Shown one piece after another: positions 30,047-64,000 of a stretch of 64,000 nucleotides of DNA (its first letter is position 1; each line of letters begins with the position of its first letter). Under the pieces are notes generated by a model, which worked only from the letters and a program-made list of their open reading frames with translations, did not search any database and was not told the origin of the DNA. Source of the DNA: Planctomycetota bacterium (lineage in GTDB: Bacteria > Planctomycetota > UBA1135); NCBI GenBank assembly GCA_045047305.1, contig JASFYO010000019.1, forward strand, positions 1 through 64,000, given 5' to 3'. A program made the translations under genes and the position numbers.

Positions 30047-32605
30047 TCACTGAGTGGAGCTGTGTACCTCAGCGCCGACAGTCGTCGACTCCAAAGTGAG
30101 CTTTCCATCAGAGACTCCCACACGCAACCCATGGCATTCTTCGAGCTCACCCCTTAAGAGTTTTTCTGAAAGCGGATTCAGAATTTTCTTTTGGATAAGC
30201 CTACGCAGCGGACGTGCGCCAAAGTCAGGGTCATACCCGCGCTCGGCAAGCCAAGTCCGCGCATCTTCACTAACCACTAGCTCCATTTGAGTGTTTTGCA
30301 TCAAACGTGCTGCAAGTTCCGTTACTTGTAAATCAACAATCTTGGCTAGCGCTTCTTTGGACAAGCTGTCAAAGACCAACACTTCATCAATGCGGTTTAC
30401 AAACTCCGGGCGGAAGTGAGCTCTCAAATCTTGCATGTTGCGCAAGTTTGAAGTCATTACGAGCAAGGTGTTGCGGAAATCCACGGTGCGCCCTTTGCTG
30501 TCGGTGAGACGACCATCGTCAAGCACCTGGAGCAAAGTGTTGAACACATCGGGGTGCGCCTTCTCCACCTCGTCCAGCAGCACTACGGCATAAGGATGAC
30601 GCCTTACTAACTCGGTTAGTTGACCGCCTTCATCATGGCCGATGTATCCCGGAGGTGCACCAATCAAACGTGCGACGGTGTGCTTCTCCTGATACTCGGA
30701 CATGTCCAAGCGAACCATTGCTTGTGCATCGCCGAACAACTCCGTTGCAATCGCTTTGCACAATTCCGTTTTGCCGACACCAGTTGGTCCAAGGAAAATG
30801 AAACTGCCCAAAGGACGACTTTCATCCTGCAGTCCAGCACGAGCGCGCCGCACCGTTTCCGCAACTGCAGTGACAGCCTGATCCTGTCCAATGACGTGCT
30901 CTTGCAGCAAGGACTCAAGCTTTAACAAGCGTTGCCTTTCCGTTTCAATCATGCGGTCGACCGGAATTCCAGTCCAAGCTGCCACAACTTCTGCGACTTC
31001 ACTTGGGCCGACCTCTTCGCGCAAAATCGGTTGATCACCCTGCAGTTCGCGTAACTTCACGGCGGCCTTGTCAGCAGCGGCTTCCAGGTCAGGGATTTCG
31101 CCAAACTGAATGCGTCCGACTTGCTCTAAGTTGCCTTCGCGTTCTAACTGTTCTGCACGAATGCGCAGCTCTTCGATTTCGGCCATGGCATCTTTCATCA
31201 AGTCCACTTGTTGCTTCTCGTTTTGCCAACGAGCCCGCAATGCTTGTGCACTCTCTTCCACCTCAGCCTTGTCTTCCTCCAAGACCTTGATCTTTATTTT
31301 TGCATCGGCGCCTCCTTCAGCCTCAAGTCCCGCTTGTTCAATCTGAATCCTGCGTAGACGGCGTTCTAAAACATCCAATTCTGCCGGCATGGAATCCAGT
31401 TCTAAACGCAAACGACTCATGGCTTCATCCATCGCATCAATTGCTTTATCGGGTAACTGACGATCTGCGATATAGCGATACGAAAGGTTCGCTGCGGCTA
31501 CCAAGGCAGCATCGGTAATTTTTACGCCGTGGTGCACTTCATAGCGTTCTTGCAAGCCACGCAAAATCGCAATGGTGTCGGCGACATCAGGCTCTTTCAC
31601 CTTTACCGGCTGAAAGCGGCGTTCTAGTGCAGCATCCTTTTCAATGTGTTTGCGGTATTCCTCGTAAGTCGTGGCGCCAATACACCTCAATTCTCCGCGG
31701 GCCAGCGCCGGCTTCAACAAGTTAGCAGCATCAACTGCGCCTTCCGCAGCGCCGGCACCAACCATGGTGTGTAGCTCATCGATGAACAAGATGATTCCGC
31801 CGTCGGCATCCTGCACTTCTTTTAGTACGGCCTTCAACCGCTCTTCAAACTCACCGCGATACTTGGCGCCGGCTAATAAGGAACCCAAATCGAGTGACAT
31901 TAAGCGCTTGTTTTCGAGCCCAGTAGGCACATCGCCAGAAATAATACGTTGTGCTAATCCTTCCACTACGGCAGTTTTGCCCACACCGGGTTCACCCACG
32001 AGAACCGGGTTGTTTTTCGTTCGGCGAGAGAGAATCTGCATCACTCGACGCACCTCTTCATCTCGCCCAATGACTGGATCGAGCTTGCCATCTCGTGCTA
32101 GTTGGGTGAGATCCTGCGCATACTTGCCAAGCGCATCGTCGGAAGCCTCCGGGTGGTCATCGGTGACTTTGCGATCGCCACGAATGCCTTCAAGGGCTGA
32201 ACGTATTGCAGCTGGATTGGCTCCACAATCTTGCAGTTCCTTTGCGAGAGGGGAGTCGGCGGAGACTAAAGCAAGCAGCAGGTGTTCGGTGGATAAGAAA
32301 TCGTCGCCCTGGGCTTGGCGGCATGCGTCCGCGGCCTGGAGCAAAAAGCCAAACTCCTTGGAGGCCATAAGCTCTCCAGGTTGGACCTTGGGCAGCTTTG
32401 CCAGCGCTTGGTTGGCTAAGGCTTCAGCTAAAAGTGGGCTTAGCTCCGTCTTGGACAATAGGGCAGGAACAAGCCCTTTCTCTTGTTTAAGCAGGGCCAG
32501 CAAGAGGTGGGCCGGCATCATCTCTCGGTGGGAGAGATCACGGGTGAAGCGCTCTGCAGCCTGCAGGGCTTCCTGAGTTTTTTGGGTGAGTGCTTGTGGA
32601 TTCAT
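30047..32605 (-). CDS. clpB: ATP-dependent chaperone ClpB
   Basis: Two AAA+ modules ([16 protein letters not shown]), coiled-coil middle domain, GARPLRR; start MNPQALTQK. Confidence 0.95.
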
Positions 32606-32647
32606 GTCATTTTGGCTGGGAGGGCTACTCCGCAACGTCCGATAACG

Positions 32648-32690
32648 TGCAACGTCCGTGCCACGGCAAAACCGCCAATATGGCAGTCCC
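32648..32690 (-). promoter_or_regulatory. Sigma-54 (-24/-12) promoter of clpB with upstream palindromic operator
   Basis: Minus strand reads GGGACTGCCATATTGGCGGTTTTGCCG-TGGCACGGACGTTGCA; perfect TGGCACG-N4-TTGCW match. Confidence 0.8.
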
Positions 32691-32709
32691 GGTTGCGTAA
32701 ACTTCTCTG

Positions 32710-33234
32710 ATGCCCGAAATCAGCCTCCTCCTCCTTGGATTTCTCAGCTTTATTGTCGCTGGGGCGGGCCTCCTGCTGATTCCATTCAGCCTTCCAGGTA
32801 ACTGGATCATTGCCTGCGCTGGGCTCTTCGGCCCCACGCTTGGTTTGGGCTGGACTCCCCTGTGGATTCTCCTTGCCGCTGCGGGAGTTGCGGAGCTTTT
32901 GGAGCTGCTCCTCGCCACCAAGACCGCAAAGAAAGCCGGTGCCGGCAAATCTGGTCAATGGGGGGCTTTCTTTGGGGGCATCACGGGGGCTATCTTTGCC
33001 ACTCCCTTCATCCCCATTCCGATTTTGGGCACCTTAATCGGCGCAGCGGCAGGGGCATTTCTTGGCGCCATTCTGTTTGAGATCATGTTTGCCAACCGAG
33101 AAAGCCAAGAGCTTATGAGCATTGGCTTTGGGGCGTTTTTGGGAGTCCTTTTAGGGAAAGGGGCCAAAATGGCCTTAGGAGCTTTTCAAATGGGCTATTG
33201 GGGCTTTGCCGTTTATCAAGGAATTTGGGCATAG
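32710..33234 (+). CDS. DUF456 family membrane protein
   Basis: [36 protein letters not shown] pattern. Confidence 0.8.
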
Positions 33235-56368: not shown

Positions 56369-58021
56369 CTAGAAGCCGCCCATGCCACCCATTCCGCCCA
56401 TACCACCCATTGGGTCGCCGCCACCGGCAGGCATAGCAGGAGCAGCTTCTTTCACTTCGGAGACGATGGCCTCGGTGGTGAGTAGCAAGGTGCTGACGGA
56501 AGAAGCATTCTGCAAAGTAGTGCGCACGACCTTCGTTGGGTCAATGATGCCCATCTTGATCATGTCGACGTACTCGCCAGTCGCTGCGTTGTAACCCTGT
56601 GCAAAGCCCTTTGCGTTACGCACTTTGTCGACCACGATGCTGGCATCGACGCCAGCGTTAGAGGCGATTTGGCGAATAGGAGCTTCCAGTGCACGGCTGA
56701 TGATTTCCGCACCAGATTTTTGGTCTCCGGACAAGTCCAGCTTGGCAATGATGGCTTGCGCACGAAGCAGGGAAGTTCCACCGCCTGGCAGCACGCCTTC
56801 TTCAGCGGCTGCGCGGACGGAAGCGAGTGCGTCATCAACGCGGTCCTTCTTCTCCTTCATTTCCGCTTCGGTTGCAGCGCCAACGTTGAGTACAGCAACG
56901 CCACCGGCCAACTTGGCCAAGCGTTCCATGAGCTTCTCCTTATCGTAATCGCTGGAAGTGCGATCAATTTCTGCACGGATGAAATCCATGCGCTCTTTGA
57001 TTGCAGACTTCTTGCCAGCACCTTCGACGATGGTGGTTGCGTCTTTCGTGATGACCACGCGCTTGGCTTGGCCAAGTTGCTCGATGGTTGCGGTGTCCAA
57101 TTTCAGACCAAGGTCTTCCATCAGTGCAACGCCGCCAGTCAACACAGCGATGTCTTCCATCATGGCCTTGCGGCGATCGCCGAAGCCAGGTGCTTTTACG
57201 GCAGCACACTTAAAGATGCCACGTAGTTTGTTGACCACCAAAGTTGCGAGCGCTTCGCCCTCGACATCTTCTGCAAGAATCAACAAAGGCTTGCCGGACT
57301 TAGCTACGGCCTCCAGTACAGGAAGCATGTCGCGTACGCTGGAAATCTTCTTCTCGAAGATGAGGATATAAGGGTCCTCCAGCTCGACTTCCATCTTCTC
57401 CATGTTGGTGGAGAAGTGCGGGGACAGGTAGCCCTTATCGAACTGCATGCCTTCAACCCACTCAATCTCGGTTTCGAGTGAGCGACCTTCTTCGACGGTG
57501 ATGACGCCATCTTTGCCAACCTTCTCAAAAGCTTCGGCGAGCTTAGCGCCAATCTCTTTGTCGTTGTTGGAAGCGATGGTCGCAACCTGCATGATTTCCT
57601 CAGTGGTCTTGACCTTGGTTGACTTCTTCTTCAAGAAATCCACGACGGCTTCCACTGCAGCTTCCATGCCGCGCTTTAGCTCAATTGGGTTCGCGCCTGC
57701 AGCAACGTTGCGTAGGCCTTCTTCGTAGATGGCTTCGGCGAGCACGGTTGCAGAAGTGGTGCCGTCACCAGCGATGTCGCTGGTCTTGGCGGAAACCTGA
57801 CGCACCAGTTGTGCACCAATGTTTTCATATGCGTCTTCGAGTTCAATCTCGCGTGCAACCGTGACACCATCCTTGGTGACAATCGGTGTGCCGAAAGATT
57901 TCTCAATGATCACGTTGCGGCCGCGTGGGCCGAGAGTGACTTTGACTGCTGCAGCGAGCTTCTGCACGCCAGCGCGGATGCCCTCGCGAGCTTCCTGATC
58001 GAATGCGATTTTCTTAGCCAT
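56369..58021 (-). CDS. groEL: Chaperonin GroEL
   Basis: [35 protein letters not shown] tail. Confidence 0.98.
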
Positions 58022-58031
58022 GATTTAAGCC

Positions 58032-58340
58032 CTAACCAATGATGCCGAGGATGTCGTTTTCCGACATGATGAGGTATTCCACACCTTCCCACTCGACTTC
58101 GGTGCCGGCATAGGAGGTGAATAGCACCCGGCTGCCGTTTTTCACGGCAAAGTCGGTGCGGGTGCCGTCGTCCAGCAAGCGACCTTCACCTAAAGCGATG
58201 ACGGTGCCTTCAGCTGGCTTCTCCTTTGCGGAGTCAGGTAGCACAATGCCACCGGCGGAGATGTCAGCAGCGGCGAGGCGCTGGACGAGAACTTTGTCGC
58301 CCAAAGGGCGGATTGCGACTTTCTTGGCGGTCTTGGCCAT
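58032..58340 (-). CDS. groES: Co-chaperonin GroES
   Basis: IRPLGDKVLV, GGIVLPDSAKEKP, YAGTEV. Confidence 0.97.
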   Translation of the reverse strand: MAKTAKKVAIRPLGDKVLVQRLAAADISAGGIVLPDSAKEKPAEGTVIALGEGRLLDDGTRTDFAVKNGSRVLFTSYAGTEVEWEGVEYLIMSENDILGIIG

Positions 58341-58369
58341 GGTTGATTCAGGTTTCTCGTAGCGCCGGA

Positions 58370-58801
58370 TTACCAAGGCTCACCGCTGTTTGGCGGTTGA
58401 CTCTCGGGCTCGTCCTGGGCAGGACGGTGATGCACTGGCGACTGGGAAAAGATGCGTTGGACGGTGATGCGCAGCAACTCCGCCGGGATGGGTTTCTTTA
58501 GCATGGTGATGACGCCCAACTCCATCGCAGCGAGTTCAATCTCACGTGAGGGGTTGCCGGTCATCAAAATGCTGGGAACAAGCTGCCCAGCTTGTCGAAC
58601 CTGCCCAATGACCTCCAAGCCGGTGAGGCCTGGCATGTGCATATCGAGCAGGGAGAGGTCATAACGAGTCTTCAGCAGTTGGCGCAGAGCATCTGCACCG
58701 GTGGAAGCCATCTCAATGCGAACGTCCAGGCCCTGCAATAGGGCCACGACAGCGCGAAGCTGGTCGTCTTGGTCGTCGGCTACGAGAATTCTGTAAGTCA
58801 T
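58370..58801 (-). CDS. Single-domain response regulator (receiver only)
   Basis: ILVADD, LLDMHMPG, MTG and KP receiver motifs; no output domain. Confidence 0.88.
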   Translation of the reverse strand: MTYRILVADDQDDQLRAVVALLQGLDVRIEMASTGADALRQLLKTRYDLSLLDMHMPGLTGLEVIGQVRQAGQLVPSILMTGNPSREIELAAMELGVITMLKKPIPAELLRITVQRIFSQSPVHHRPAQDEPESQPPNSGEPW

Positions 58802-58822
58802 GAGGTTCCCTCGCCTATGAAG

Positions 58823-58865
58823 AGCAATCCTCGTGCCATCCGCGGCCTGCCGTATCGGCAGTCCC
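58823..58865 (-). promoter_or_regulatory. Sigma-54 promoter of the receiver-groES-groEL operon with upstream palindromic operator
   Basis: Minus strand reads GGGACTGCCGATACGGCAGGCCGCGGA-TGGCACGAGGATTGCT. Confidence 0.8.
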
Positions 58866-58881: not shown

Positions 58882-59184
58882 CTAGCTGCCGGAAATGCCG
58901 AGGTCTTCCTCTTCGTCCTCGCCCTCATCGCCGAAATCCATACCGCCTTCGACCCACTCGTTTTCCTCGAGCCATTCACTTTTGTCGAGCGCTTGAGTAC
59001 GACCTTCCTCAAGGATGGCTTCATCCTCCCAGTGGTCGACGGCGTGCTTCAGAACTTCTTGATCGAGATTGCCAGCGCAGAGCAAACATTTGGCTCCACC
59101 TTCCAAGGCCTCAACGGCGTCACTGTAAGTAATGACTTCGTAGGAACAAAGCGGGCAACGGACGACGTTTTTGGCAGTACTCAT
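58882..59184 (-). CDS. Small Zn-finger-like (CxxC...CxxC) protein with acidic tail
   Basis: CPLC and CLLC; D/E-rich C-terminus; in line with the operon. Confidence 0.6.
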   Translation of the reverse strand: MSTAKNVVRCPLCSYEVITYSDAVEALEGGAKCLLCAGNLDQEVLKHAVDHWEDEAILEEGRTQALDKSEWLEENEWVEGGMDFGDEGEDEEEDLGISGS

Positions 59185-60856: not shown

Positions 60857-62965
60857 TTATTCCGTCGGTTTTTCTGCCGGAAGCCACCGTTTTACCGCTG
60901 CGGTGAGTTTTTCCACCGTAATTGGCTTGGCAAGATAGTCATCCATGCCGGCGGCGAAGCACTTGTCAGAATCTCCTTCCATGGCATTTGCGGTCATCGC
61001 CATGATGGGGACATGTCTTTCACCATCACTCTCTGCTTTACGGATGGTTGCGGTTGCCTCGTAGCCGTCCATGACGGGCATTTGGCAGTCCATGAGCACC
61101 AAGTCATAGTGACCACGGGCGACGGCCTTCACCGCTTCTGCACCGTTTGAGGCGATGTCAATCTCGCAGCCGAAACGTTGTAGCATTTTGACGGCAACCT
61201 TTTGGTTGACCAGATTATCTTCTGCAAGCAAAATGCGGGAACGCGAGAAGTTGAGTTTCTCTGCCAGAGAATGCTGAGTGACAAGCTCATTCAGCTCTCC
61301 GTAATTGGAGAGTCCCATTACCGTACCAATGCATTGTTCCAGCAAGGTGGCGCGCAGTGGCTTGGCAAGGTAGCCGGAAACTTTAATGTTTCTAGCCTCG
61401 GAAGCTTCTGCTCGATCGCCGAGTGAAGTTAGCAAAATGGTTGGTAAGTCGGAGATGCGATCATCTTCGCGGATTTTACGTGCAAGCTCCAAACCGTTCA
61501 TTGAGTTTGGCATATAGGCATCAAGCAGAGCAAGTTGAAATGGATCGTCGCCAGCCTTGGCGGCGAGCATGGCATCAAATGCGGTTTGTGCGTCTTCGAA
61601 CAATACGGGCTGAAGCCCCCAGTTCTGAAGCAAGGATTTGAGTAGCGTTCGGTTGGTGAGGTTGTCATCTACACAAGCAACGCGCATGCCTTTGAGTTCG
61701 ACAAGTGGAATTTCTTTCATCGGTTCAGAAACATTGCCAACTCCAAGTCGTACCGTGAACCAAAAAGTACTTCCTTTACCTTTCTCAGAATTCACGCCGA
61801 TTTCTCCACCCATCATTTCGGTGAGTTGCTTGGAAATGGCCAAGCCTAATCCAGTGCCACCAAATTCACGGGTGGTGGATTCATTGGCTTGCGTAAATGC
61901 TTGAAATAGACGCGATGCTTCTTCTGGAGTTAAGCCTACACCAGTATCGGTAATCTCAAAACGCAGCACGGTTTCGTCATCCGTGCGCGCCAAAGATTTA
62001 ATCTGCACCACAACTTCACCTTCCCGCGTAAACTTAATTGCATTGCCCACTAAGTTGGTAAGGATTTGACGCAATCTTCCCGGGTCACCTGCGACCTCAT
62101 TGGTGACGTCGTGATCCATGAGCAAGGTAAGTTCCAGATTGCCCAGGTGCGCTTTTTCCGCAAGGATGGCCAAAACGGATTCTGCCATGGAACGCAAATC
62201 GAAATCAATCGTTTCCAAATGCAGTTTCCCACTCTCGATTTTTGAGAAGTCGAGGATATCGTTAATGACAACTAACAAGGCTTCTGCAGAGTCTTGAATC
62301 GTATCTAAGAAACTGTGCTGTTCTCGATCGAGACTTGTTTCGTTGAGTAATCCTGCCATACCGATAACGCCATTCATTGGAGTTCGAATCTCATGACTCA
62401 TGGCGGCGAGGAAAGCGCTTTTGGCGGCAGTGGCCTTGACCAGTGCCTCATTCGCAAAATGAAGCTCATCGTTCTTTAAAGCGATTTGACCTTGGCTTTC
62501 GCGCAAGGCGTCATACGCCGCATCTCGCTGTAGGCGCATGCGGTAGGCACTAGCATGGTGGCGAATTCGCGCGACGAGCTCGTGAGCATCAGGCAGCTTT
62601 ACTAAGTAGTCGTCTGCTCCGGCAGTAAAGGCATCGGCCTTGTCTGCGCCATCGTCTTTGGAAGACAATACGATGATCGGAATGTTTTCAGTCGCAGAGT
62701 TTCCAGAGAAGAAACGAATCATGGCCATTCCATCTACGTCCGGCATGACGAGGTCTTGCAGGATGACGGTGGGCTGGATTTTTTCCACTTCACGCATCGC
62801 TTCGACTGGGTCGGAGCAGTGATGAAGAATAATGTCGGATTCCTGTGCCAGCATGCTGCGGATTGCCGCGCCGACTAAAATCTGGTCGTCGATGAGCAAA
62901 ACAAGAATCTCTTGATTCTCTCGCTGCTTGACCTGAGGAAAGACCTTTGTTTTAGGTTTGTCCAT
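60857..62965 (-). CDS. Soluble hybrid histidine kinase: WspR-like REC - HisKA - HATPase - REC - REC
   Basis: N-terminal receiver ([24 protein letters not shown]); [11 protein letters not shown]-box; N/G boxes; two C-terminal receivers. Confidence 0.92.
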
Positions 62966-63997
62966 TTAATTTGACTCCATTGATGCATGTGATTTCTTAG
63001 CTTTTGTGGAAAAAGCTGAGCAAATTTCTTCACGGGATAACACTTGAGCGGCAGCTTGAATAGCGACGGCCGCCTTCGGCATACCGTAAACAGCTGAAGA
63101 CGCTTGGTCTTGAGCGATGGTGTTGTGTCCGGCTTCTCTTAGCGCAAGCAGTCCTTTCGCTCCGTCCCTTCCCATGCCGGTAAGCAAGACTCCTGTCGCC
63201 GCGCCCGTCCAGTGTCGTGCAACGCTATTGAAAAACTCATCTACCGACGGCCGATAGGGGAGGTTGACGGGTTCAGCGCAGTACTGAAAACTTCCATGGC
63301 GGGAAATCACAAGGTGGTCGGAGGTCATGGCAAGGTAAACCACGCCGTGCTTGGGGCGCTCTCCAGCAACGGCAGCACGCACTGGAAGTGGTGAGTCTTG
63401 CCCGAGCCATTCGACGAGACCCGGTAGGAAGAGTGAATCTAAGTGTTGGGTAATCACTACAGCAAAGTCGGGATCAGGATCGATGGATTTCAAGATGCTT
63501 TGTAGTACGCCAGGCCCCCCGGTTGAGGCCCCTATGCAGACTAAGCTTTGCGCAAAGTTACTTCTTTTGAGATTCCGACTTGAATCATCTGGAATCATGC
63601 TGCCGTGAAGCATTTGCTCGATGGAATCAATTTTATTAAGCAAAATGGAGCCCAACCTGCATGATCCCAGTGCACTTTGACTTGGTGTTTGCACGGCATC
63701 AATCGCGCCAGCCGCAAGTGCTTCGTAAACTAATTTAGCGTTTCCTACTAGAGTACTAGTTACCAATAAAATAGGAAGCGAAGAGTTTTGCATGATTTCC
63801 TTGGTGGTCTCCACCCCGTTTTTCCCGGGCATCACTAAGTCCATCAAGATCAAATCGGCGGTAGGGCGAGTGGCCATTACACACGCTTGCTCGCCATCTT
63901 CCGCGACCCAAGCGATGCTGTGTCGGTTGGAATTCTGGATGATGCGGCGCAACGCTTCGCGCGCAATAGGGGAGTCATTTACGATGGCGATTCTCAT
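62966..63997 (-). CDS. cheB: Chemotaxis methylesterase CheB, WspF-like
   Basis: MRIAIVND receiver; GASTGGP, QH, YRPSVD, LLTGMGRDGA.GL, QD..S..VYGMP. Confidence 0.93.
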   Translation of the reverse strand: MRIAIVNDSPIAREALRRIIQNSNRHSIAWVAEDGEQACVMATRPTADLILMDLVMPGKNGVETTKEIMQNSSLPILLVTSTLVGNAKLVYEALAAGAIDAVQTPSQSALGSCRLGSILLNKIDSIEQMLHGSMIPDDSSRNLKRSNFAQSLVCIGASTGGPGVLQSILKSIDPDPDFAVVITQHLDSLFLPGLVEWLGQDSPLPVRAAVAGERPKHGVVYLAMTSDHLVISRHGSFQYCAEPVNLPYRPSVDEFFNSVARHWTGAATGVLLTGMGRDGAKGLLALREAGHNTIAQDQASSAVYGMPKAAVAIQAAAQVLSREEICSAFSTKAKKSHASMESN

Positions 63998-64000
63998 GTA

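Follow-up and report, generated by a model that had tools for sequence, protein, structure and literature searches.

How is a chaperone operon switched on when the only conserved element upstream of it lies eight base pairs from a sigma-54 promoter? This question is raised by the window studied here, a stretch of 64,000 nucleotides from a planctomycete genome (2.83 Mb assembled, 88% complete). Two 43-mers, one upstream of clpB and the other upstream of an operon for a stand-alone receiver domain, GroES and GroEL, had been singled out in an initial annotation as palindromes joined to sigma-54 promoters, and both are present on the minus strand where it had placed them (Table 1). Sigma-54 requires an ATP-driven activator, and sigma-54 activators are defined as acting at a distance through a DNA loop. 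We consider it rather probable that an NtrC-family activator, most likely the one linked to dnaK, binds the palindrome and switches on four chaperone operons loop-free, from a single promoter-adjacent site.

Table 1. Features of the window and of two further contigs (C21, C66) of the same genome.
Feature	Position	Strand	Remark
clpB	30047..32605	-	probable ATG 32605; ORF list opens at TTG 32635
weak second palindrome match over clpB start codon	32604..32618	-	12.0 bits
clpB sigma-54 -24/-12 promoter	32648..32663	-	predicted transcription start near 32637
clpB palindrome core CTGCC-N5-GGCGG, predicted activator site	32672..32686	-	sequence; 18.7 bits with a matrix trained on the window sites and related sites
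-10-like hexamer TAAACT of DUF456 gene (32710-33234)	32698..32703	+	6 nt before ATG
groEL	56369..58021	-	Pfam
groES	58032..58376	-	as listed ORF; true start probably ~20 codons later
stand-alone receiver-domain protein, first gene of operon	58370..58801	-	Pfam
sigma-54 -24/-12 promoter of receiver-groES-groEL	58823..58838	-	predicted start near 58812
palindrome core CTGCC-N5-GGCAG, predicted activator site of receiver-groES-groEL	58847..58861	-	sequence
receiver-AAA+-HTH activator directly before dnaK	C21:47220-48662		NtrC-family; HTH_8 at residues 436-475
histidine kinase directly before dnaK region	C21:48655-49383		sensor-less
dnaK promoter composite	C21		gap 8; outside window
groEL-groES-groEL-dnaJ promoter composite	C66		gap 39; outside window

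Both window promoters carry TGGCAC-N5-TTGC at exact spacing shortly before a gene, as expected of sigma-54 promoters. The perfect form TGGCACG-N4-TTGCW has only these two matches in the whole genome, where base composition predicts 0.74 (0.017 per 64 kb), and Pfam identifies the downstream products as ClpB and as receiver domain, GroES and GroEL. The two composites had been called identical; they are alike, but the GGGA flank is not kept in relatives, in which a position table shows the conserved part to be the 15-bp core CTGCC-N5-GGCAG alone. With the start sites placed by the -24/-12 convention at both promoters, the clpB core spans about -49 to -35 with its centre at -42, and one site centred near -42 is the only conserved upstream element at promoters where palindrome and -24 box are separated by a gap of 8 bp. 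The weak second match over the clpB start codon is seen in 3 of 28 clpB loci. One metatranscriptome contig, from a relative and about 89% alike, runs across receiver-groES-groEL and has its end near 58794, not far from the predicted start, though a single contig of this kind cannot by itself show a transcription start.

The regulon proved larger than first reported. The palindrome, CTGYCA-N3-TGRCAG, together with a sigma-54 promoter, stands before four operons (clpB, receiver-groES-groEL, dnaK and groEL-groES-groEL-dnaJ) and at no other intergenic place in the genome. Of the 64 palindromes returned by a matrix scan, five have a sigma-54 site downstream: one, a weak match, inside a gene, and four intergenic, with gaps of 8 at dnaK, clpB and receiver-groES-groEL and of 39 at groEL-groES-groEL-dnaJ. 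The genome has 439 sigma-54-like sites if one mismatch is allowed. Three of them (those of groES, clpB and dnaK) have the palindrome at equal spacing with 1-2 mismatches, and the remaining sites all have at least 6 mismatches. The proposal of a sigma-54-type chaperone regulon with a common palindrome is thus upheld by four out of four intergenic composites and by rpoN, whose presence had been put forward as a check and which was found in the genome. As for further chaperone targets, dnaK carries the composite and lon does not; clpP/clpX and ftsH are likewise present with no composite site. Hsp20 was not found in the genome, htpG and grpE were not retrieved with crude patterns, and contig C66 stops just after dnaJ. 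The rpoN gene itself (C14:689-4440) lies beside efp, near an agmatinase-like gene and another NtrC-family regulator; apart from rpoN and the regulator, these names were given by eye. What appears to be an ordinary second sigma-54 circuit is found at C44:6417-6510, where the gene for NorR (over its NCBIfam cut-off) is divergent from a sigma-54 promoter that precedes a cytochrome c-type gene.

None of the classic heat-shock operators was found in this genome, in agreement with the initial annotation. CIRCE had no match at up to 3 mismatches, and HspR/HAIR and CtsR, which were searched as operators, had none at 1 mismatch. The hrcA gene is found in 0 of 41 related genomes (79-96% complete), and nothing exceeds the cut-off for rpoH in the studied genome, 88% complete (best 156 bits vs 323). 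The HrcA/CIRCE, sigma-32, HspR/HAIR and CtsR systems are alike in their target genes, whereas hrcA, rpoH and the operators were not found here. In Myxococcus xanthus, MXAN_4468, an orphan response regulator encoded directly before groEL2 and comparable to the window receiver by gene position, is described in the accessible text as a negative regulator acting via HrcA (PMC9040617), which was not found here.

Sigma-54 control of chaperones, which had been offered as unrecognised, is already published (PMC12316311, PMC9723704). In Flavobacterium psychrophilum the accessible text assigns mapped sigma-54 promoters (motif SM4) to groESL, dnaK, grpE-dnaJ, htpG, lon and clpB, and no activator or upstream palindrome is named in those parts of the paper and its supplements (PMC9723704). 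Likewise, GroEL, GroES, DnaK, DnaJ, GrpE and Clp-type genes are enriched behind predicted sigma-54 promoters in Planctomycetota and Bacteroidota, according to the portion consulted of a study that predicts promoters only and whose main text, to that extent, gives no upstream palindrome or UAS (PMC12316311). We found no published description of the palindrome, its activator or a promoter-adjacent site, nor of the spacing ladder and linker relation described below, in a literature search that left most subscription papers outside; the accessible parts of PMC6211767, PMC3162934, PMC545781, PMC7366714 and PMC2754498 give no account of the motif.

The composite is conserved in relatives, as had been anticipated: 38 of 49 family genomes have its 8-bp form, and none has the reversed pattern. 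When 185,579 genomes were scanned for exact matches, 55 loci came up. Of these, 46 precede a chaperone operon (that of dnaK, clpB or receiver-groES, or a grpE-like gene with dnaJ behind it), one is truncated by a contig end, and the eight elsewhere were treated as chance. Two records with Myxococcota titles (L120, L127) carry the family's dnaK and receiver-groES loci and match one of its genomes (G055), and the title is probably a mislabel. As a phylum-wide motif the fixed 8-bp composite was rejected, matching only 7 of 351 planctomycete genomes (3 in the family and 4 not at chaperone genes).

Nor is the 8-bp spacer fixed within the family, contrary to the initial annotation; it is one rung of a ladder. 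Promoters were picked by gene and not by motif, and loci lacking the receiver gene or a sigma-54 site were dropped (2 of 23 receiver-groES, 1 of 21 second-groEL and 1 of 29 clpB). A site lies within 200 bp in 19/21 receiver-groES, 20/20 second-groEL and 28/28 clpB promoters, compared with 1/144 in coding controls and 1.4-4.5% in shuffles. Because these very sites went into the motif consensus, such hit rates are partly circular, but the distribution of gaps is not. The gaps, measured up to the -24 box, fall into clusters at 8-9, 17-19, 28-30, 38-42, 48-52, 59-61, 69-72, 81-85 and 109 bp, stepping by helical turns (8, 18, 29, 39, 50, 60, 71, 82). For 41 genus-by-operon gaps the periodicity at 10.5 bp (R=0.64) was reached in 0 of 2000 permutations, and for the 22 distinct gap values in 6 of 2000; the dnaK promoters of the family, most of which had been collected through the motif, were not part of this test. 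Most gaps (55 of 69 promoters) are of 52 bp or less and 13 are of 59-109 bp. Two sites occur in just 1 of the 69, and both window promoters have a gap of 8, so that neither the tandem sites of a classical enhancer nor its distance (about 80-150 bp upstream, with looping) is the rule here. Natural spacings that differ by whole helical turns are also known for the LuxO/qrr enhancers, although only between about 80 and 120 bp in the part of the source available (PMC4740811).

The sister families of the order tell what kind of site this is. The motif is present in their dnaK (24/26), second-groEL (10/11) and receiver-groES (5/5) promoters, after 3 of 14 second-groEL and 2 of 7 receiver-groES loci had been dropped, but there it forms tandem pairs 48-152 bp upstream. 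At least two sites, mostly 33 or 40-43 bp apart, occur in 30 of 42 promoters (18/26 for dnaK and 9/11 for groEL), and the nearest site is at least 60 bp away in 36 of 42; these gaps have no significant helical period (679 and 1156 of 2000). In other planctomycete families across the phylum, 15 of 26 dnaK loci have a sigma-54 site directly upstream and all 15 carry the motif at gaps of 69-140; one of them has a further, weak match at gap 3. Activator enhancers are known to take the form of paired inverted repeats at a distance, in the accessible text of two reviews (PMC7175178, PMC7057263). Since a repressor could not act from distal tandem positions, the most fitting reading of the motif is an activator site that, in the studied family, has come to lie beside the promoter. 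Of the two roles originally proposed for the binding factor, repressor or non-looping activator, the second thus fits and the first fits badly; the palindrome is most likely an activator site and not a repressor operator.

With an adjacent site at three of the four operons in the genome, the activator would likely work without the usual DNA loop. In this it would differ from NtrC/glnAp2, ZraR, AtoC and LuxO/qrr, which are alike in the -24/-12 promoter, the inverted-repeat site and a receiver-AAA+-Fis-HTH activator with its kinase; NtrC-type sites, as far as the consulted parts of the sources go, lie 100-150 bp upstream, are usually paired and need a loop (PMC7057263, PMC9770992, PMC7175178), as opposed to a single site 8 bp from the -24 box. 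A hidden distal partner for the 8-bp promoters was looked for and none was found: a second site of at least 10 bits within 400 nt upstream is seen in 0 of 42 promoters with gaps up to 9 (1.3 expected). The whole family has a mild excess of weak second matches (9/91 vs 2.8). Among promoters with gaps of at least 45, a loose IHF-like match is seen in 18 of the 38 from sister families and in 9 of the 19 from the family, as against 4 and 0 in the coding controls. Loss of IHF/HU was rejected as a cause; the family keeps 1-2 members as against 2-4 in two sister genomes, in counts that do not distinguish IHF from HU.

The position at -42 also invites the opposite reading, in which the adjacent site is inhibitory or modulatory: the regulator at -42, or its unphosphorylated form, would hinder polymerase, and activation would come from solution. 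In the accessible part of one study, NtrC is reported to require a distance of 70 bp or more from the start site (PMC7408454), so a site at -42 lies outside the tested range and below the reported limit. In addition, partial access to the sources indicates that a sigma-54 promoter can be repressed by proteins sitting between it and its enhancer (PMC4740811) and that the enhancer-independent activators FlgR and CtcC exist (table in PMC7175178). The genome does encode an activator that could serve from solution, a sigma-54 AAA+ protein with neither receiver nor DNA-binding domain (C15:53779-54720 of the studied genome G000, L004:1309-2250), encoded behind a gene that, judged by eye, resembles a CDP-alcohol phosphatidyltransferase. 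We nevertheless hold an inhibitory site to be unlikely. Where a single site lies at a gap of 59-109, it could not block polymerase, and both the distal tandem pairs of the sister families and the way in which linker length tracks site position (see below) speak against it. FlgR and CtcC, which belong to group 5 and activate in the absence of a distant enhancer, have no DNA-binding domain in the table cited, while the candidate considered here has one together with a conserved site (PMC7175178, in part).

Which protein would be this activator? The genome encodes six sigma-54 activators, one of them the protein devoid of a DNA-binding domain. The regulator adjoining dnaK has the features of a group 1 bEBP: a receiver, a sigma-54 AAA+ domain, a Fis-type HTH and a neighbouring kinase. 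An H-box of this kinase was found in 18 of 27 loci, in none of which a membrane-spanning stretch precedes it; in 11 of them an ATG lies just 19-25 codons upstream. The candidate reads GSFTGA instead of GAFTGA, and GAFTGA, GSFTGA and GAYTGA all occur among Bacteroidota relatives. Its best NCBIfam match is NtrC, at 428.7 vs a cut-off of 558.6, and it falls below the cut-off of 25 of the 25 families listed. The recognition helix ERTLYR is common to the family, the sister families, other planctomycetes, Gemmatimonadota and Bacteroidota, and the best match to it in planctomycetes is the gene adjoining dnaK. In a tree of 53 AAA domains, 38 proteins of the ERTLYR type split from 15 other activators with a support of 90, in a quick search in which this key branch was not starred.

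The assignment of this activator, made by gene position and co-occurrence among the six, leaves room for a different dimeric factor, one that is not an AAA+ protein or not linked to dnaK, which would bind the palindrome and help or recruit the activator. The link between candidate and site is indeed not direct, many other regulators are encoded besides the six activators, and a centre at -42 resembles the class II activator sites of sigma-70 promoters. On the other hand, one and the same recognition helix accompanies the motif in three phyla with its best match adjoining dnaK, HrcA is found in 0 of 41 genomes, and activator enhancers typically have such distal tandem sites in the consulted part of one review (PMC7175178). 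A separate binding factor therefore seems to us quite unlikely.

If the dnaK-linked activator does bind the palindrome, the length of its linker may explain how it dispenses with the loop. Measured from WPGN to ERTLYR, the linker has 91-168 residues in the family (21 of 23 loci measurable), 79-84 in the sister families (16/16), 142-186 in Gemmatimonadota and 154-209 in Bacteroidota. For the one other planctomycete found to have an 8-bp site (L098, G563), whose activator lies outside the family on the AAA tree, a long linker was predicted beforehand and one of 114 residues was found, and three planctomycete genomes with distal sites have linkers of 79, 80 and 90 residues (a fourth was not recovered). 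Loop-free activation is thus suggested by the longer linkers between ATPase and DNA-binding domain in lineages with adjacent sites, a contrast that amounts to about four independent lineages. The relation is not strict: Gemmatimonadota genomes with long linkers also use distal sites (5 of 15 clpB sites at 95-113), and an unrelated sister-family activator has a linker nearly as long as that of the studied genome (92 vs 97, from another anchor). A single-sequence AlphaFold model of the candidate was poor (mean pLDDT 42, linker 391-436 as coil, helix-turn-helix about 80) and was not counted as evidence.

We propose the following mechanism as the simplest. Upon folding stress, the sensor-less kinase would phosphorylate the activator. 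A dimer of DNA-binding domains would hold the site at about -42, or whole turns farther upstream on the same face of the DNA, and the lengthened, flexible, proline-rich linker would let the AAA+ ring reach sigma-54 at -12. The linker would in this way replace the loop that sister lineages may form from distant tandem sites. More speculatively, the stand-alone receiver of the groESL operon could drain phosphate from the system and so provide negative feedback.

Similar arrangements are found in other phyla. In Gemmatimonadota the 8-bp pattern occurs in 10 of 151 genomes (4 for the reversed control), and 8 of its 11 sites precede chaperone genes, two of them Hsp20-like by eye. Among clpB loci of this phylum, chosen by gene, 17 of 28 have a sigma-54 site, and 15 of the 17 have the palindrome (control 1/17), ten at a gap of 7-8 and five farther out. 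In two Gemmatimonadota groES promoters (L147, L150) a CIRCE-like inverted repeat shares sequence with the -24/-12 box, upstream of which the palindrome follows at 8 bp, an arrangement that suggests dual control by activator and HrcA. In Bacteroidota, 11 of 30 dnaK loci have a sigma-54 site; seven of these promoters have a palindrome site of at least 8 bits, four at a gap of 11-12, and the other four have no site of 8 bits. At the mapped, expressed promoters of groES, grpE and htpG in F. psychrophilum, one half of the palindrome is matched 11-12 nt ahead of the -24 box, and lon and dnaK, the other two of the five genes viewed, show no clear half-site; the sequences begin at -50, so that the palindrome is cut (PMC9723704 supplement 3). 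Activators of the ERTLYR group in Bacteroidota have no receiver domain. Whether one ancient activator family (helix ERTLYRK) serves as chaperone master switch in Planctomycetota, Gemmatimonadota and Bacteroidota, and whether looping was lost independently in at least 3-4 lineages as the enhancer collapsed to a single adjacent site and the linker grew, is a proposal on which we are evenly divided.

Finally, the palindrome might owe its existence to something else altogether: an RNA hairpin acting as terminator, a by-product of the DUF456 promoter, or chance. The clpB and dnaK copies can pair fully if G-U wobble is allowed, four T follow the clpB copy, and the dnaK copy follows a stop codon. Across 124 distinct cores, however, the non-Watson-Crick pairs (27 G-U, 25 A-C and 55 other) show no strand bias, which speaks strongly against an RNA hairpin; moreover, it is the sequence that is conserved and not pairing alone, and the site lies upstream of the predicted start. 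Regarding the divergent gene, the hexamer TAAACT is present as the initial annotation had stated, although the relevance of a link between the palindrome and a DUF456 -35 region is unsupported. Of 29 loci, 17 have DUF456 in divergent orientation to clpB, and at 8 of 28 clpB loci a similar hexamer precedes a start codon by 5-9 nt; TAAACT probably marks a leaderless sigma-70 promoter outside the regulon. In one of these eight loci the distance between hexamer and palindrome shifts by about 30 bp, yet the palindrome keeps its 8 bp to the -24 box. The palindrome goes with the -24 box and not with the hexamer, so a by-product of the DUF456 promoter is unlikely, and we regard these three origins, taken together, as highly improbable.

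How enhancer-bound activators engage the promoter complex is still open according to the consulted parts of two reviews (PMC7057263, PMC7175178). A natural site and a -24/-12 box inside 40 bp could allow a full-length activator to be captured with polymerase on one short fragment, and the natural ladder of gaps provides ready-made tests. For the control of chaperones in phyla where neither HrcA nor sigma-32 was found, a candidate regulator, a kinase and a binding site can now be put forward, and these are open to study in cultured planctomycetes, Gemmatimonas or non-pathogenic flavobacteria. If true, the wider proposal of one ancient activator family that repeatedly lost looping would define a natural non-looping class of sigma-54 activation that follows a simple sequence rule, namely the same helical face and a long enough linker.

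Two further genes near the groESL operon deserve mention. A protein of 100 residues with two CxxC pairs, an acidic tail and no Pfam or NCBIfam match is encoded just upstream of the receiver-groES promoter (58882-59184, minus strand) and is conserved in most family genomes. Some 2 kb upstream of the operon (60857-64000, minus strand) lies a hybrid histidine kinase with several receiver domains, together with a CheB-like gene.
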